DNA of 64,000 bases, taken from NCBI RefSeq assembly GCF_058153355.1, contig NZ_CM177019.1; one strand, 5' to 3'. Below the pieces are notes generated by a model. That model worked only from the letters and a program-made list of their open reading frames with translations, made no database searches and had not been told where the DNA came from. Position numbers and translations under genes: made by a program. Below are positions 9,009 through 26,942 of this stretch, one piece after another. Within the stretch, counting starts at the first letter, position 1; each line of letters starts with the position of its first letter.

Positions 9009-10283
9009 TTATTCACCAGATGCCTGTTGCGCTTCCGGCTTGCCATAAATCAGCAACGGCTTGCTTTGACCATCAATTACCGATTCGTCGATAACCACTT
9101 TTTCGACGTCTTCCATGGACGGCAGATCGTACATGGTATCGAGCAGTGCGGCTTCTACGATGGAACGCAGGCCACGAGCACCGGTTTTACGCGCCATCGC
9201 TTTCTTAGCGATAGCATCCAGCGCCTCGTCACGGAATTCCAGATCCACGCCTTCCAGATTAAACAGCGCCTGATACTGCTTGGTCAGGGCGTTTTTCGGC
9301 TCTTTGAGGATCTGAATCAGAGCTTCTTCGCTCAGTTCATTCAACGTTGCGACAACCGGCAGACGACCAATGAACTCAGGGATCAGACCAAACTTGATCA
9401 GATCTTCCGGTTCAACCTGCGCCAGCAGCTCGCCTTCACTTGCTTTGTCAGATTTCGCTTTTACCGTCGCGCCAAAACCAATGCCGGAGCCTGTTTCTAC
9501 ACGATGGGAAATCACTTTATCCAGACCGGCAAACGCACCGCCACAGATAAACAGGATCTTAGAGGTATCAACCTGCAAGAATTCCTGCTGCGGATGTTTA
9601 CGCCCACCTTGCGGTGGAACAGCAGCTACCGTACCTTCGATCAGTTTCAACAGTGCCTGCTGTACGCCTTCACCGGAAACGTCTCGGGTAATGGACGGGT
9701 TGTCTGACTTACGAGAAATCTTGTCGATTTCATCGATGTAGACAATCCCGCGCTGCGCTTTCTGTACGTCGTAATCGCACTTTTGCAACAACTTCTGAAT
9801 GATGTTTTCAACGTCTTCGCCCACATAACCGGCTTCGGTCAGCGTGGTTGCATCGGCCATGGTGAACGGGACGTCCAGCAGGCGCGCCAGCGTTTCGGCC
9901 AGCAGCGTTTTACCGGAACCGGTCGGACCGATCAGCAGAATGTTACTTTTGCCCAACTCGACACCATTGCTGGTATCGCCGTTGCGCAGACGTTTGTAGT
10001 GGTTGTATACCGCGACCGCCAGCACTTTTTTCGCCTGTTCCTGACCGATAACGTAATCGTCCAGGTGGTTGCGAATTTCATGCGGCGTCGGTAGCGCACT
10101 GCGTTCACGATGCGGTGCAACTTCTTTAATCTCTTCGCGAATGATGTCGTTACATAAATCAACACATTCGTCGCAGATATACACGGATGGACCGGCAATC
10201 AGCTTGCGCACTTCATGCTGGCTTTTGCCGCAAAAAGAGCAATACAGCAATTTGCCTGAGCCATCTTTGCGTTTATCTGTCAT
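9009..10283 (-). CDS. clpX: ATP-dependent Clp protease ATP-binding subunit ClpX
   Basis: 424 aa; N-terminal zinc-binding CSFCGK...CDEC, Walker A GPTGSGKT. Confidence 0.97.
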
Positions 10284-10409
10284 GGGTCAAAACCTCTTCT
10301 TTGTTCTTTGTGCCGCACACGACGACGCAAATGCCATTCTCAGGCGCAAGCCGCTTTATAGCGTTGTGCCGCCCTGGATAAGTATAGCGGCACAGTTGCG
10401 CCTCTGGCA

Positions 10410-11033
10410 TCAATTACGATGGGTCAGAATCGAATCGACCAGACCGTATTCCACCGCTTCAGGGGCGGAAAGGAAGCGATCGCGCTCGGTGTCACGTTCA
10501 ATCTGTTCTAATGATTGACCCGTATGAAGCGCCATAAGTTCATTCATACGCCCTTTAACTTTCAGAATTTCACGGGCATGAATTTCGATATCGGTCGCCT
10601 GGCCCTGGTAGCCGCCCAACGGCTGGTGAATCATCACGCGCGAATTCGGCAGGCAGAAACGTTTACCTTTTGCCCCGGCGGTCAGCAAGAAAGCGCCCAT
10701 CGAGGCCGCCTGGCCCATGCAGATGGTGCTGACATCAGGCTTGATAAACTGCATGGTGTCATAGATAGACATCCCGGCAGTGATCACCCCGCCTGGGGAG
10801 TTAATGTACAGATAGATATCTTTTTCTGGGTTTTCTGCTTCCAGGAACAGCATCTGCGCCACAATCAGGTTAGCCATGTGGTCTTCAACCTGGCCAGTCA
10901 GAAAAATGACGCGTTCCTTAAGTAGACGAGAATAGATATCAAAAGAGCGCTCACCACGTGAGGTCTGTTCAATGACCATCGGCACCAGCGCCATATGGGG
11001 TGCAAAGTTATCTCGTTCGCCGCTGTATGACAT
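10410..11033 (-). CDS. clpP: ATP-dependent Clp protease proteolytic subunit ClpP
   Basis: 207 aa; [45 protein letters not shown], active-site GQAASMGA. Confidence 0.97.
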
Positions 11034-20006: not shown

Positions 20007-20897
20007 ATGATGTTTAAGCAATACCTGCAAGTAACGAAACCAGGCATCATCTTTGGCAACCTGATCTCGGTGATTGGGGGATTCCTGCTGGCCTCAAAGG
20101 GCAGCATTGATTATCCCCTGTTTATCTACACGCTGGTTGGGGTGTCACTGGTTGTGGCGTCGGGTTGTGTGTTTAACAACTACATCGACAGGGATATCGA
20201 CAGAAAGATGGAAAGGACGAAGAATCGGGTGCTGGTTAAGGGCCTGATCTCTCCTGCTGTCTCGCTGGTGTACGCCACCTTGCTGGGTATTGCTGGCTTT
20301 ATGCTGCTGTGGTTTGGCGCGAATCCGCTGGCCTGCTGGCTGGGGGTGATGGGCTTTGTGGTTTATGTCGGCGTCTACAGCCTGTACATGAAACGCCACT
20401 CGGTCTACGGCACGTTGATTGGTTCGCTCTCCGGCGCAGCGCCGCCGGTGATTGGCTACTGTGCAGTGACAGGCGAGTTCGATAGCGGCGCAGCAATCCT
20501 GTTGGCTATCTTCAGCCTGTGGCAGATGCCTCACTCTTATGCCATCGCCATTTTCCGCTTTAAGGATTATCAGGCGGCAAACATTCCGGTACTGCCGGTG
20601 GTGAAAGGCATTTCGGTAGCGAAAAACCACATCACGCTGTATATCATCGCCTTTGCTGTTGCCACGCTGATGCTCTCTCTTGGCGGTTACGCTGGGTATA
20701 AATATCTGGTGGTCGCCGCGGCGGTTAGCGTCTGGTGGTTAGGTATGGCGCTGCGTGGTTATAAAGTTGCTGATGATCGAATCTGGGCACGCAAGCTGTT
20801 CGGCTTCTCGATCATCGCCATCACTGCCCTCTCGGTAATGATGTCCGTTGATTTTATGGTGCCGGACTCGCATACGCTGCTGGCTGCTGTGTGGTAA
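20007..20897 (+). CDS. cyoE: protohaem IX farnesyltransferase (haem O synthase)
   Basis: ORF 19962-20897; conserved start [18 protein letters not shown]; UbiA-family motif [18 protein letters not shown]. Confidence 0.95.
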
Positions 20898-20911
20898 CAC
20901 AACCTCTCTAT

Positions 20912-20938
20912 AAAAAAGGTGCTACGGCACCTTTTTTA
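20912..20938 (+). terminator. Rho-independent terminator of cyoE / cyoABCDE operon
   Basis: GGTGC-tacg-GCACC hairpin (20918-20931) followed by TTTTTT, 15 nt after cyoE stop. Confidence 0.8.
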
Positions 20939-20952
20939 TTGTCTGAGAACAG

Positions 20953-20977
20953 AGATACGGCTAATAGCCGTATCTCT
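20953..20977. promoter_or_regulatory. perfect 11-bp inverted repeat (operator candidate 1) abutting the -35 of the toxin-antitoxin promoter
   Basis: GAGATACGGCT-AAT-AGCCGTATCTC, perfect palindrome. Confidence 0.6.
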
Positions 20978-21005
20978 TGACAGAGTGAGTATATGCACAT
21001 AAATT
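20977..21005 (+). promoter_or_regulatory. candidate sigma70 promoter of the antitoxin-toxin operon
   Basis: -35 TTGACA (20977-20982), 17-bp spacer, -10 TAAATT (21000-21005). Confidence 0.5.
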
Positions 21006-21010
21006 AATCA

Positions 21011-21027
21011 TACGGTTGATAGCCGTA
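21011..21027. promoter_or_regulatory. second inverted repeat (operator candidate 2) just downstream of the -10
   Basis: TACGGTTGATAGCCGTA shares the TACGG...AGCCGTA half-sites of operator candidate 1. Confidence 0.55.
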
Positions 21028-21081
21028 TTATGCATGAGATCGACTCCCTACGATTTCATTCAGTTAATCAAAGAGGTCATA

Positions 21082-21393
21082 ATGCCTGGAAAAACAGTCG
21101 CTCTACCCGATATCGATAAAACGCTGAAAAATGCGCGGGTTGAACTCAAAACCAGTCCCGACGCCAAAAACAAACTTCGTGAAGCTGCGCAAGCCGTTGG
21201 GGTAGATTTAAGCGCTTTTATTTTGAGCGCAGCTATGGAACGCGCCGAAAGTGTGCTTGATAACCAACGTCGCCGTGAGCTTTCGAATCAAAGCTGGGAA
21301 CTGATGAACCAACTCATCGCTGAACCTGCTCAACCGACGCTCGCCCTCAAGGCGTTAATGAAAAGGAAAAACAGCGATGGTCGACAAGCATGA
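21082..21393 (+). CDS. DUF1778/ribbon-helix-helix type II antitoxin (TacA/AtaR-like), 103 aa
   Basis: ORF 21016-21393 trimmed to ATG 21082, which follows SD AAAGAGG (21071-21077); small protein with the SAFIL...A..AE.VL pattern typical of DUF1778 antitoxins; 17-nt overlap with downstream GNAT gene. Confidence 0.75.
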   Translation: MPGKTVALPDIDKTLKNARVELKTSPDAKNKLREAAQAVGVDLSAFILSAAMERAESVLDNQRRRELSNQSWELMNQLIAEPAQPTLALKALMKRKNSDGRQA

Positions 21394-21919
21394 AGAGATT
21401 ACTCTGCCCATAGTCCTCTCCTGTAATTATCAGTCTGATATTACTTATCCTGGGCAAAAACAGTTTGATTGCGGTAACCCTGTTATCGATAAATTTGTAC
21501 GCGCATCGCTAAAGAAAAGTGTGCGTAATAGCGACTGTGCTGCTAAAGCACTTATTGACAGACAAAGTGGTGAACTGATTGGCATCTGTACTTTTACGGC
21601 ATATTCGCTGGAAAAACAACGCGTTTCTGGCGTCCTTCAGGGTTCACAACCTTCAGAGATTGGTGTTGTCAGATTAGTCATGTTAGGGGTAGCGCGGAAA
21701 TATCAAAAGCGGGGCTTTGGTCAGGACCTACTATGTGATTTTTTTGAACATGTAAAAATAATTCACCGGGCATTACCAATTAAAGGGGTTTATCTTGATG
21801 CTGACCCTGCCGCCATTAACTTTTATACTCGTCTCGGCTTTGTTCAGCTTTCAGCGAGGCCCAATGTTTTCGGTGCTGTACCGATGTTTTTAGCGATTCA
21901 GCATATTCTCGCGGCTTAG
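21377..21919 (+). CDS. GNAT-family acetyltransferase toxin (TacT/AtaT/KacT-like), 180 aa
   Basis: N-terminal FDCG motif, acetyl-CoA binding RKYQKRGFGQ (Q/R-x-x-G-x-G), C-terminal FYTRLGF with conserved Tyr; translationally coupled to the upstream antitoxin. Confidence 0.8.
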   Translation: MVDKHEEITLPIVLSCNYQSDITYPGQKQFDCGNPVIDKFVRASLKKSVRNSDCAAKALIDRQSGELIGICTFTAYSLEKQRVSGVLQGSQPSEIGVVRLVMLGVARKYQKRGFGQDLLCDFFEHVKIIHRALPIKGVYLDADPAAINFYTRLGFVQLSARPNVFGAVPMFLAIQHILAA

Positions 21920-22909
21920 ATTATTATCGCCTCCGGCCATGGCAAGTTTTGCCTCAGCCGGGGACTGAGCAGCGTTACCACTTTTGTTCAATTGCCCCGC
22001 TTTCATCAGGTCCACATCCTTGCCTTTAATGGTTGCCGTTGCGGCAACGATTGTGGTCCTTATTGCTGCACAAGATTTTCGTTCAAATTCCGGTTTATAA
22101 AGAATAAGCAACGAATTACTGGTAAATGAATCAAGCCGGTAATCTGTAAAGTTAATATCCAGTCGGTTTAAGCCGAAAGGTGCAAAGCCGACCGTTTGAA
22201 TAGTTTCCTTACCTGACGGACTCTTGATGTTGTACGTAACACGAAGATTGGCCACTTCGCCTAATTTATTGGTTTTGGCAAAGAGGCTATCCATACAGGA
22301 AAAACCTTTATCTAAAAAATTATCCCGCATTCCAGAACGGGTAATCGTGATCACAGGTAACGTATCGTCAACCGTTTTTCTGTCAATCATATCTTTTCGA
22401 CAGGCGGCCATAAAGTCTTCCGGACCAGCATAAATGTGAACACCCTTATCAAGATATTCTTTCGCTTTACTACAATCCACCTCGACATACTGACCATTGG
22501 CGTACATCATGCCCAACCTGGACCATGCTAAATTCACACCGCGTTGCGTAGCCTGATTAAATAACGTATACGCTTTGGCGTAATCCACTCGCACCTGTTC
22601 ACCTTCGTAGTAGATATTCCCCAGCGCTAACGGAGCTTCTTCATCACCTTGTTTAGCGGCTAACTCGAACCATTTAATGGCTTCCTGAACGTTGGGTTTG
22701 GTATCGTAGCGGGGCTGATAATATTCCCAGCCTAACAGGCTTTGCGCGTCGACATCCCCCGACTCAGCCATTTTATGCAGTGTCCTTATCACATCGGGGG
22801 CAGGCTTTTCACTGTATATGCTGTCATACAATTCATGCGCTTTCTCGCTTGCCAGTGAACCTTGTGAGGCAATTAATAAAATAGCCAATAAACTCTTTTT
22901 ATTTAACAT
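21890..22909 (-). CDS. secreted Sel1-repeat (TPR-like) protein with ~170-aa C-terminal domain of unknown function
   Basis: 339 aa; signal peptide MLNKKSLLAILLIASQGSLA; Sel1-like repeats (AQSLLGWEYY..., EAIKWFELAAKQGDEEAPLALGNIYYEG, AKAYTLFNQATQRGVNLAWSRLGMMYANG); 3' end overlaps GNAT gene 3' end by 30 bp. Confidence 0.7.
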   Translation of the reverse strand: MLNKKSLLAILLIASQGSLASEKAHELYDSIYSEKPAPDVIRTLHKMAESGDVDAQSLLGWEYYQPRYDTKPNVQEAIKWFELAAKQGDEEAPLALGNIYYEGEQVRVDYAKAYTLFNQATQRGVNLAWSRLGMMYANGQYVEVDCSKAKEYLDKGVHIYAGPEDFMAACRKDMIDRKTVDDTLPVITITRSGMRDNFLDKGFSCMDSLFAKTNKLGEVANLRVTYNIKSPSGKETIQTVGFAPFGLNRLDINFTDYRLDSFTSNSLLILYKPEFERKSCAAIRTTIVAATATIKGKDVDLMKAGQLNKSGNAAQSPAEAKLAMAGGDNNLSRENMLNR

Positions 22910-23325
22910 AAATAACTTTTATGCATCCATCACTATATTTTTCAATATACCTAACCACCAAACATCCACTTCATGAATAAATACACAGCCATAACAACCT
23001 CAGGTAATAAGTAAACATTTAAGCTGAAGCAGAATAACCAGCACCTCCAACACCTCTATTTATTACGATAAAATAACATCATCCTTTAATAAAAAATCAC
23101 ACGCTCATCAACAAATCCGAAAATAATATCATTCGTGGCAGGATAAAATCAGGTGAGCTTTTCATTTGTTATATTTAACACACAAAGTATTAATGGCAAG
23201 AATACGAGAGAAGCGCATGCCTGACGTAAAAATCACGCTCTTATGTAATATTTACTCATTAACACTCTGTTTACCCAACATGCGCTCCGCACTACACTAT
23301 GTGGGCAATTTTTTAAGAGGTGGTA

Positions 23326-24690
23326 ATGAACGATTATAAAATGACGCCAGGTGAGCGGCGCGCGACCTGGGGTTTAGGGACCGTATTTTCATTGCGCATG
23401 CTGGGCATGTTTATGGTACTGCCGGTTCTAACTACGTACGGTATGGCACTGCAAGGTGCCAGTGAAGCATTAATCGGTATTGCCATTGGTATTTATGGCC
23501 TGACTCAGGCCGTTTTTCAGATTCCGTTTGGCCTGCTCTCAGACCGTATTGGTCGCAAACCATTAATTGTCGGCGGGCTGGCGGTGTTTGCTGCCGGTAG
23601 TGTTATCGCTGCGCTTTCCGACTCAATCTGGGGAATTATTCTGGGCCGGGCGTTACAAGGTTCTGGAGCGATTGCCGCTGCCGTTATGGCGCTACTTTCT
23701 GATCTCACGCGCGAACAAAACCGCACCAACGCGATGGCGTTTATCGGCGTGAGTTTTGGTATTACCTTCGCCATTGCGATGGTACTTGGCCCTATCATCA
23801 CTCACAAACTTGGACTGCACGCGCTGTTCTGGATGATCGCTATTCTGGCAACAACCGGCATTGCGTTGACCATTTGGGTGGTGCCCAACAGCAGCACGCA
23901 CGTACTTAATCGTGAGTCCGGGATGGTGAAAGGCAGTTTCAGCAAAGTGCTGGCAGAACCGCGACTGCTGAAACTCAACTTCGGCATTATGTGTCTGCAC
24001 ATGCTGCTGATGTCGACGTTTGTTGCCCTGCCCGGACAGTTGGCTGATGCGGGGTTCCCGGCGGCTGAGCACTGGAAGGTCTATCTGGCGACGATGTTAA
24101 TCGCCTTTGGCTCGGTTGTGCCTTTCATTATCTACGCGGAAGTTAAGCGCAAAATGAAGCAAGTCTTTGTCTTCTGCGTCGGGCTGATCGTGGTTGCGGA
24201 AATTGTGTTGTGGAACGCACAAACGCAGTTCTGGCAACTGGTGGTCGGCGTGCAGCTATTCTTTGTGGCGTTTAATTTGATGGAAGCCCTCCTCCCCTCG
24301 CTTATCAGTAAAGAGTCGCCAGCCGGTTACAAAGGCACGGCGATGGGCGTTTACTCCACCAGCCAGTTTCTTGGTGTGGCCATTGGCGGTTCGCTGGGTG
24401 GCTGGATTGACGGCATGTTTGACGGTCAGGGCGTATTTCTCGCTGGCGCAATGCTGGCCGCAGTGTGGCTGGCAGTCGCCAGCACCATGAAAGAACCGCC
24501 GTATGTCAGCAGTTTGCGCATTGAAATCCCATCGGACATTGCCGCAAACGAGACGTTAAAAGTGCGTTTGCTGGAAACTGCGGGTGTCAAAGAAGTGTTG
24601 ATTGCAGAAGAAGAACATTCGGCTTACGTGAAAATCGACAGCAAAGTGACGAATCGCTTTGAAGTTGAACAGGCAATTCGTCAGGCATAA
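23326..24690 (+). CDS. yajR: MFS transporter YajR
   Basis: ORF 23320-24690; conserved start MNDYKMTPGERRATWGLG; 12-TM MFS with soluble C-terminal domain. Confidence 0.93.
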   Translation: MNDYKMTPGERRATWGLGTVFSLRMLGMFMVLPVLTTYGMALQGASEALIGIAIGIYGLTQAVFQIPFGLLSDRIGRKPLIVGGLAVFAAGSVIAALSDSIWGIILGRALQGSGAIAAAVMALLSDLTREQNRTNAMAFIGVSFGITFAIAMVLGPIITHKLGLHALFWMIAILATTGIALTIWVVPNSSTHVLNRESGMVKGSFSKVLAEPRLLKLNFGIMCLHMLLMSTFVALPGQLADAGFPAAEHWKVYLATMLIAFGSVVPFIIYAEVKRKMKQVFVFCVGLIVVAEIVLWNAQTQFWQLVVGVQLFFVAFNLMEALLPSLISKESPAGYKGTAMGVYSTSQFLGVAIGGSLGGWIDGMFDGQGVFLAGAMLAAVWLAVASTMKEPPYVSSLRIEIPSDIAANETLKVRLLETAGVKEVLIAEEEHSAYVKIDSKVTNRFEVEQAIRQA

Positions 24691-24726
24691 AAAACGAGGC
24701 GAATTGCCTGTTGCGCTACGCTTTTC

Positions 24727-24800
24727 AGGCCTACAAAAGTTCCTGAGTGACAAACCTTTGTAGGCCGAATCAGGCGTTCATGCCGAATCTGACATGAACA
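24727..24800. repeat. REP-like palindromic element (yajR-yajQ intergenic)
   Basis: GGCCTACAAA...TTTGTAGGCC 10-bp inverted repeat followed by GCCGAATCAGGCG / GCCGAATCTGAC REP-like units. Confidence 0.6.
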
Positions 24801-24818
24801 AAGCGCAGGTTGTCGCGA

Positions 24819-25310
24819 TTAATCGCGGAAGTTTTTGAACTGGAACGGCTGACCCAGATCGCCACCACGTACCATCGCCATGACAGCCTGCAAATCATCA
24901 CGAGATTTGCCCGTCACACGGATCTCATCGCCCTGAATTTGCGCCTGCACTTTCAGTTTGCTGTCTTTGATCATCTTGACGATTTTCTTCTGGGTCGCGC
25001 TTTCAATGCCCTGTTTCAGTTTCGCTTCCACAAACCAGGTTTTACCGCTATGAACGATATTTTCCGGTACATCCAGCGAACTGCCTTCAATGCCGCGCTT
25101 CAGCAGCTTGGCACGCAGAATATCCAGCAACTGATTGACCTGGAAGTCGGACTCGCTCAACACTTTGATGGTTTTGCTGGCGTCGTTCAGCTCAAATGAG
25201 GCTTCAACGTTACGGAAGTCAAAACGGGACTCCACTTCGCGGCTCGCGTTATCGACCGCGTTTCGAGCTTCCTGAAGATCAACTTCAGAGACAATATCGA
25301 AAGATGGCAT
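24819..25310 (-). CDS. yajQ: nucleotide-binding protein YajQ (UPF0234)
   Basis: ORF 24819-25478; conserved start [26 protein letters not shown] at ATG 25310 (minus). Confidence 0.9.
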
Positions 25311-25388
25311 CTTTTCCTCTCCCTTCATTTTTGATGCGAAGCATAATACCTGCAAAGTTAAATAACCGACAGTCCTGCACCAGGACGT

Positions 25389-25434
25389 ATCCCTTAATTG
25401 TGCATAGTCGCAACAGCATGCACAATTAAGGGAT
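25389..25434. promoter_or_regulatory. 17-bp perfect inverted repeat in the divergent yajQ/panE control region
   Basis: ATCCCTTAATTGTGCAT-(12 nt)-ATGCACAATTAAGGGAT. Confidence 0.5.
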
Positions 25435-25477
25435 AGCCTTATTGAACACCCGGAGTGGTTGCGGGTGAGGAGGAACA

Positions 25478-26942
<1,465 letters not shown>

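Follow-up and report, generated by a model that had tools for sequence, protein, structure and literature searches.

What occupies the interval between cyoE and yajR in part of the E. coli population, and was it gained there or lost from K-12? The question is raised by a 64,000-nt stretch of contig NZ_CM177019.1 (NCBI RefSeq assembly GCF_058153355.1), hereafter the window, whose positions are used throughout unless another contig is named. According to the list of its open reading frames (ORFs), three lie between the 3' end of cyoE at 20897 and the start of yajR at 23326: a toxin-antitoxin gene pair and, convergent with it, a gene for a Sel1-repeat protein. We propose that these are two independent units, the pair itaRT and the Sel1 gene, sharing an old and decaying locus from which K-12 has lost the block, a reading to which we would give a probability of roughly 80%. 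The Sel1 protein would belong to a family that joins Sel1 repeats to a C-terminal domain (CTD), and it is the presence of such Sel1+CTD genes beside cyoE in other genera, mostly without itaRT, that makes the empty site of K-12 most likely a deletion.

Layout and edges of the interval

The features on which the argument depends are the following (window positions, strand where one applies).

20910-20939, plus strand: intrinsic terminator hairpin of cyoE, a perfect 13-nt inverted repeat followed by a T-run
20955-20973: palindrome copy 1, ATACGGCTAATAGCCGTAT, putative operator 1, just upstream of the -35 hexamer; kept in O111
20977-21005, plus strand: promoter-like site for itaRT (TTGACA, 17 nt, TAAATT), sigma-70-like with 10/12 matches
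21010-21028: palindrome copy 2, ATACGGTTGATAGCCGTAT, putative operator 2, just downstream of the -10 hexamer
21082-21393, plus strand: itaR, a 103-aa DUF1778/RHH (TacA-type) antitoxin by structure matches to KacA and AtaR and by RefSeq annotation
21377-21919, plus strand: itaT, a 180-aa GNAT aminoacyl-tRNA N-acetyltransferase toxin by its match to PDB 7BYY
21890-22909, minus strand: gene for a Sel1-repeat protein, predicted to be exported, with a signal peptide, three Sel1 repeats and an IrmA-like beta-sandwich CTD; the window ORF has 339 aa
21993-21998 (~21995), minus strand: 1-nt deletion that shortens a C/G homopolymer from 5 bases to 4, from alignment with L001 and L003
22910-23325: AT-rich, divergent Sel1-yajR spacer with 31-35% GC, containing the right boundary of the K-12 indel at ~23238-23247

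The identities that the initial annotation of this DNA had assigned to the three genes, an RHH/DUF1778 antitoxin, a GNAT toxin and a convergent Sel1-repeat protein, are borne out by structure and profile matches. So is its observation that GC lies below that of the flanks, at 0.31-0.48 against 0.50-0.57: the genes range from 0.40 to 0.48 and the spacer 22910-23320 from 0.31 to 0.35. The alignment of the window with a K-12-type genome (L002) breaks off after 20940 and resumes at ~23238-23247, with only about 20 unrelated nucleotides between, which agrees with the earlier statement that K-12 is without the block. What K-12-type genomes lack corresponds to window 20941-23246, about 2.3 kb, and the left boundary of the indel, 20940/20941, falls directly 3' of the cyoE terminator hairpin. 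The cyoE-yajR spacer of K-12 measures 148 bp, close to the figure of about 150 bp that the initial annotation had given.

The edges are as free of mobility signatures as had been described: no tRNA was found at the interval edges, no integrase or transposase among the interval ORFs, and no flanking direct repeat in a repeat search. An Rfam scan of 20700-23500 at E<=1 gave only a sub-threshold STnc50 match (E 0.95) overlapping the cyoE terminator, and an NCBIfam search of the interval proteins gave weak generic matches only, none above curated cut-offs. Among the traits associated with mobile islands, the interval displays atypical GC and a patchy distribution; mobility genes, att sites, tRNA and repeats were not found.

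Loss from K-12 or gain elsewhere

We surveyed 5,426 complete E. coli genomes for presence and absence, a comparison that the initial annotation had proposed along with a definition of the junctions. With its boundaries at 20940/20941 and ~23238-23247, the whole block is present in 1,366 of them (~25%), including BL21, SE11, O111, O26, O103 and O104:H4; itaRT is found in 1,368 and the Sel1 gene in 1,371. RefSeq names the products 'DUF1778 / TacA family antitoxin', 'GNAT family N-acetyltransferase' and 'tetratricopeptide repeat protein'. The block is no private islet but a polymorphism common in E. coli and annotated in RefSeq. Every empty site listed in a rank-spread sample spans the same 820 bp, and this equality of length is consistent with a single origin of the empty allele.

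The same locus in other taxa is arranged as follows, in gene order from cyoE where cyoE is named, with percentages giving identity to the window proteins and numbers after Sel1 giving the size of the copy.

Salmonella enterica (GCA_006432735.1, L015): cyoE, Sel1 (496), decayed short-form copy, exported 326-aa protein, Sel1 (484), Sel1 (496), yajR; itaRT none
E. albertii (L019): cyoE, 325-aa protein, short Sel1 (89%), yajR; itaRT none
Escherichia sp. E4930 (L021): cyoE, short Sel1, long Sel1 (499), yajR; itaRT none
Escherichia sp. MOD1-EC7003 (L008): cyoE, amidohydrolase-like ORF in the itaRT slot, short Sel1, yajR; itaRT none
Pseudocitrobacter metagenome-assembled genome (MAG; L009): cyoE, ItaR (86%), ItaT (89%), short Sel1 (59%), long Sel1; itaRT present
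Enterobacterial contig (L007): cyoE, short Sel1, long Sel1; itaRT none
Enterobacteriaceae metagenome contig (L004): intact itaR, truncated itaT, short Sel1, long Sel1; itaRT decayed

The short Sel1 gene is the constant resident of the locus, and itaRT is one among several neighbours that change. In Salmonella the interval extends to about 6 kb (6001-12031 of L015), and its decayed short-form copy (10010-10529) retains 50% identity over the CTD. A tblastn search of MOD1-EC7003 gave no match to either ItaR or ItaT.

Several residents of these loci deserve mention in their own right. An exported protein of about 325 aa without a Pfam match is encoded at 5048-6025 of L019, 9001-9981 of L015 and 4998-5975 of L007; the E. 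albertii protein is 66% identical to that of Salmonella and occupies the slot held by itaRT in E. coli, and in L007 its frame is split into ORFs of 144 and 145 aa. At 4812-5759 of L008, the itaRT slot contains an ORF that, judged by eye, resembles an M20-type amidohydrolase, together with short remnant ORFs, which adds to the evidence that the cyoE-proximal slot may be a hotspot for gene replacement. At 6984-7544 of L004, itaR is intact (82.5% identity) and itaT is reduced to residues 11-89, an apparent orphan antitoxin left after decay of the toxin.

The initial annotation regarded the whole 2.3 kb as a recently acquired horizontal islet in an ancestrally empty cyoE-yajR spacer. The GC of the interval, its occurrence in only a quarter of E. 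coli genomes, and a divergence of ~15% between occupied and empty alleles over the ~100 bp upstream of yajR would all suit such an acquisition, but we judge it quite unlikely. Sel1+CTD homologues occupy this site in several genera and in all the Escherichia species and clades that were sampled, with paralogues in Salmonella, Pseudocitrobacter, E. albertii and cryptic Escherichia clades, which speaks against an ancestrally empty spacer. The Cyo proteins of the Pseudocitrobacter MAG are 88-94% identical to those of the window and its ItaR and ItaT 86-89% (amino-acid identity), so that the toxin-antitoxin pair has diverged about as much as the backbone, and the Sel1 protein, at 59%, far more. The empty sites sampled all share one length, and the lack of visible insertion machinery (integrase, transposase, tRNA, direct repeats) is most likely explained by the block not being an insertion at all.

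If K-12 has indeed lost the block, the most economical order of events would be the following. An ancient Sel1+CTD cluster would have resided in the cyoE-yajR interval before the split of Escherichia, Salmonella and Pseudocitrobacter, and would have been progressively reduced in Escherichia until one gene was left in the E. coli lineage. The itaRT pair would then have come to occupy the cyoE-proximal slot, between the Sel1 gene and cyoE, in the E. coli lineage. Finally, a single deletion of about 2.3 kb would have produced the empty K-12-type allele now present in about 75% of E. coli.

Several observations weigh against this account. A remnant of the block was sought in the ~20-nt filler of K-12, and the scores lay within those of shuffled controls except in the already homologous yajR-proximal part; the filler, being without a recognisable remnant, does not tell directly which way the indel went. 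Moreover, neither E. albertii nor Salmonella nor two cryptic clades have itaRT at this locus. The pair itself has therefore probably been introduced or swapped in the course of its history, and E. coli and Pseudocitrobacter could both have it through transfer by flanking homology instead of common descent. Lower GC and a patchy distribution of 25% also fit horizontal spread.

The toxin-antitoxin pair

The itaR gene precedes itaT with a 17-nt overlap, and its product matches the structures of KacA (E 3.5e-11) and AtaR (E 8.6e-9) and is 97% identical to the O111 copy. ItaT aligns over its full length with PDB 7BYY, the ItaT of E. coli HS, with 175/180 residues identical (E 1.3e-115). Its catalytic Tyr150 and the hydrophobic aminoacyl pocket formed by V36, I37, F40 and M102 (roles as assigned in PMC6125619 and PMC7367177) are all conserved, and the five differences from HS ItaT are conservative-to-moderate substitutions (G115D, R131Q, T151A, R161T and V164A). 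With a toxin 97% identical to PDB 7BYY and a biochemistry already published (PMC6125619, PMC7367177), the pair is, as judged from its sequence, the experimentally characterised ItaRT, and the initial annotation, which recognised no characterised arrangement here, needs correcting in this respect.

The ItaT of HS is toxic and acetylates Ile-tRNA (Wilcox et al. 2018, PMC6125619), and its substrates have since been widened to Val- and Met-tRNA (Zhang et al. 2020, PMC7367177); BL21(DE3) has a virtually identical pair (PMC6125619). By analogy with this 97%-identical orthologue, the window toxin would take acetyl-CoA as its donor and N-acetylate the aminoacyl group of charged Ile-tRNA or, with lower efficiency, that of Val- and Met-tRNA, which would block translation. 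ItaR would bind and neutralise ItaT, and the ItaR-ItaT complex would repress its own promoter, as is expected from HS, where the complex, and not ItaR alone, represses the promoter contained in a 172-bp upstream fragment (PMC6125619).

The promoter-like site at 20977-21005 falls in the region equivalent to that ItaRT-repressible fragment (PMC6125619), and two copies of a 19-nt palindrome, ATACGGYTRATAGCCGTAT, bracket its -35 and -10 hexamers. Repression of the upstream region by the ItaRT complex was described by Wilcox et al. (2018), who named no operator (PMC6125619). We suggest that the two palindromes are probably the ItaR/ItaRT operators that mediate it.

The Sel1-repeat protein and its C-terminal domain

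The canonical form of the Sel1 protein is 311 aa long and is encoded both by a genome 99.9% identical to ours (L001) and by O111 strain 11128; in the window, its stop would fall at 21975. The 1-nt deletion at ~21995 exchanges its last 6 residues (AIEQKW) for a tail of 34 that extends the ORF into the 3' end of itaT, and it accounts for both the length of 339 aa and the 30-nt overlap of the Sel1 ORF with itaT. The missing base may reflect a true frameshift or an error in sequencing the homopolymer.

Read by inspection, the N-terminus of the protein, MLNKKSLLAILLIASQGSLA followed by SE, is basic and hydrophobic, with small residues at -3 and -1 and no lipobox Cys, features that suggest Sec export. 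Pfam finds three Sel1 repeats (PF08238) at residues 54-89, 95-124 and 131-155, one strong and two weak, and solved Sel1-like repeat (SLR) proteins such as EsiB match residues 43-157. Confident AlphaFold models (predicted local distance difference test, pLDDT, 82.7 for the full length and 81.5 for the CTD alone) predict a helical region over residues 40-178 and then a beta-sandwich CTD of ~130 residues, for which the only significant structural match is E. coli IrmA, at a level that indicates a similar fold of the FnIII type. Counting against this part of our account, the models were built on shallow alignments of 13-14 sequences, and a HMMER profile of 14 CTD sequences did not match 5EK5 among PDB sequences even at E<=10, so that the predicted resemblance to IrmA is structural only.

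The CTD family is tiny, with 34 representatives among 1.84 billion clusters, and in those full-length members that were inspected the domain follows the Sel1 repeats. By AFDB and cluster names, the Sel1+CTD family extends to Salmonella, E. fergusonii, Pectobacterium, Morganella, Proteus, Providencia, Affinibrenneria and Achromobacter. A literature search for the Sel1 gene by guessed locus tags of BL21, REL606, HS and O111 found nothing. Of the Salmonella tags, STM0438 turned up once, in a list of virulence-associated genes, but we give it no weight, its equivalence to the Sel1 gene being conjectural. We would picture the Sel1 protein as a Sec-exported, non-enzymatic binding protein, a short-form member of this small paralogue family.

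Divergence and decay of the Sel1 gene

Compared with the common allele, the Sel1 gene of the window is only ~88% identical in nucleotides and 84.6% in protein, against 97-98% identity for itaRT. The window-type allele (>=95% identity) occurs in only 18 genomes, and its 90% cluster includes strains labelled E. coli M863 and Escherichia sp. TW15838. By the Nei-Gojobori method, the Sel1 gene of the window and that of O111 differ by a nonsynonymous divergence (dN) of 0.085 and a synonymous divergence (dS) of 0.45, a dN/dS of 0.19; the same comparison gives dS of 0.10 for itaT, 0.13 for cyoE and 0.23 for yajR, with dN/dS <=0.10 in all three. The Sel1 gene is under purifying selection that is weaker than that on its neighbours, and a dS of 0.45 implies that the two Sel1 alleles are old lineages. 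An identity of about 90% in the survey of complete genomes had raised another Escherichia species as the source of the window, an idea that we reject: the low values are confined to the Sel1 gene, its spacer and yajR, CyoB and CyoE are identical in protein to those of K-12, and distant window segments are 97-98.6% identical to typical E. coli. The Sel1-yajR spacer is hypervariable between alleles, with 63-74% identity to O111.

Seen along the window, divergence from typical E. coli peaks over 20400-26000, where the 3' end of cyoE, yajR and panE are 94-95% identical, the Sel1 gene 87-89% and the spacer 63-74%; on either side, cyoABCD upstream and ~25000-25600 (yajQ) are 97-100% identical. The peak points either to an ancient haplotype or to recombination that imported a tract with the Sel1 gene at its centre.

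Truncated Sel1 alleles of 248 aa occur on >200 contigs and are common in the allele group of the window, and Shigella sonnei has partial copies. Rapid evolution and frequent breakage make it probable that selection on the Sel1 gene is relaxed or fluctuating, as would be expected of a factor in contact with the host or the cell envelope. One might go further and regard the Sel1 gene of this genome as a non-functional relic on its way to a pseudogene, with only itaRT active: the homopolymer deletion changes the CTD in its C-terminal strand and appends 34 residues, truncated alleles are common in the same allele group, and dN/dS exceeds that of itaT, cyoE and yajR. We consider this doubtful: 304 of 311 residues are intact, the dN/dS well below 1 shows that the family overall is still under purifying selection, and the indel itself may be a homopolymer sequencing error.

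Linkage of itaRT and the Sel1 gene

The initial annotation spoke of a tRNA-acetylating toxin module in physical coupling with the exported Sel1 protein. The three genes might form one module in which the Sel1 protein acts as a third component, sensor or payload, and their near-perfect co-occurrence in E. coli (1,366 blocks against 1,368 itaRT and 1,371 Sel1 genes) would be expected of such a module; outside E. coli, where co-occurrence of the three genes was also to be sought, the trio is adjacent in one Pseudocitrobacter MAG. We nevertheless regard a common function as very improbable. The pair and the Sel1 gene are convergent and separate units, and their products would work in different compartments, the toxin-antitoxin pair in the cytoplasm and the Sel1 protein, with its predicted signal peptide, outside it. 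At least five lineages have the Sel1 gene at the locus but no itaRT (E. albertii, E4930, MOD1-EC7003, Salmonella and L007), itaT has decayed beside an intact Sel1 gene in L004, and a CTD homologue in Achromobacter has no toxin-antitoxin neighbour; this check of distant CTD homologues rests on Achromobacter, the P0040 and the Providencia-like P0057 contigs being too short. For its part, ItaRT cloned alone works as a two-gene system (PMC6125619). A PADLOC scan of the three proteins found no defence system, ItaR and ItaT being without a match and the Sel1 protein having only a spurious one (E 3e-4), and the evolutionary rates are very different (dS 0.10 for itaT against 0.45 for Sel1). The link between the toxin-antitoxin pair and the Sel1 gene is one of position and not demonstrably one of function. 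We note that, as an addiction module, ItaRT might slow the loss of the last surviving Sel1 copy.

Implications

We would read the cyoE-yajR polymorphism as loss from K-12 and not as gain elsewhere, and the 'GNAT family N-acetyltransferase' and the 'DUF1778 protein' that annotations place here in about one E. coli genome in four can be renamed ItaT and ItaR. Nothing in the interval suggests a new mechanism. The Sel1 family has kept one chromosomal address in several genera in spite of its quick evolution and frequent decay, and Salmonella carries up to three long Sel1+CTD paralogues plus one short one. A more ambitious proposal is that proteins joining Sel1 repeats to an IrmA-like domain are an undescribed family of exported host- or envelope-interaction factors, anchored at cyoE-yajR across the Enterobacteriaceae and under diversifying or balancing selection, with ItaRT perhaps slowing their loss in E. 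coli. Behind the idea of diversifying selection stands the dS of 0.45 between the two E. coli Sel1 alleles, set against a backbone that is 97-98.6% identical. We offer the proposal as a speculation that is rather unlikely to hold in full; if a role of the Sel1 protein in host interaction were established, enterobacterial biology would gain something new, though modest.

Elsewhere in the window, a short element at 40812-40846, in the secDF-tsx region, has dozens of matches per E. coli genome (median 38) and is presumably a repeat of the repetitive extragenic palindromic (REP) or bacterial interspersed mosaic element (BIME) type.

Comparison with known systems

The closest relatives of the toxin-antitoxin pair are the ItaRT systems of HS and BL21(DE3), with which the window shares the gene pair, its overlap, the chromosomal block (as in BL21) and the upstream promoter region. 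The papers on ItaRT (PMC6125619, PMC7367177) do not discuss the chromosomal context, the Sel1 neighbour or the operator palindromes. TacAT of Salmonella, KacAT of Klebsiella and AtaRT of enterohaemorrhagic E. coli (EHEC) have the same layout, in which an RHH/DUF1778 antitoxin gene lies upstream of, and overlaps, the gene for a GNAT toxin that acetylates aminoacyl-tRNA, but their similarity to the window pair in sequence is distant (E 1e-5 to 1e-9), and their tRNA specificities are reported to be different.

The Sel1 protein invites comparison with two known proteins. Its N-terminal half aligns with EsiB (c5321; summed E 3.7e-43), and both appear to be exported helical-repeat scaffolds, export being a prediction in the present case; the Sel1 protein differs in having only three repeats and a beta-sandwich CTD that is absent from EsiB. 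IrmA (C1275) is a secreted, cytokine-binding interleukin-receptor mimic of uropathogenic E. coli (PMC4807369; PDB 5EK5), 18-19% identical to the CTD. It is a stand-alone, domain-swapped dimer encoded beside agn43, whereas the IrmA-like domain predicted here is fused to Sel1 repeats and carries conserved cysteines.

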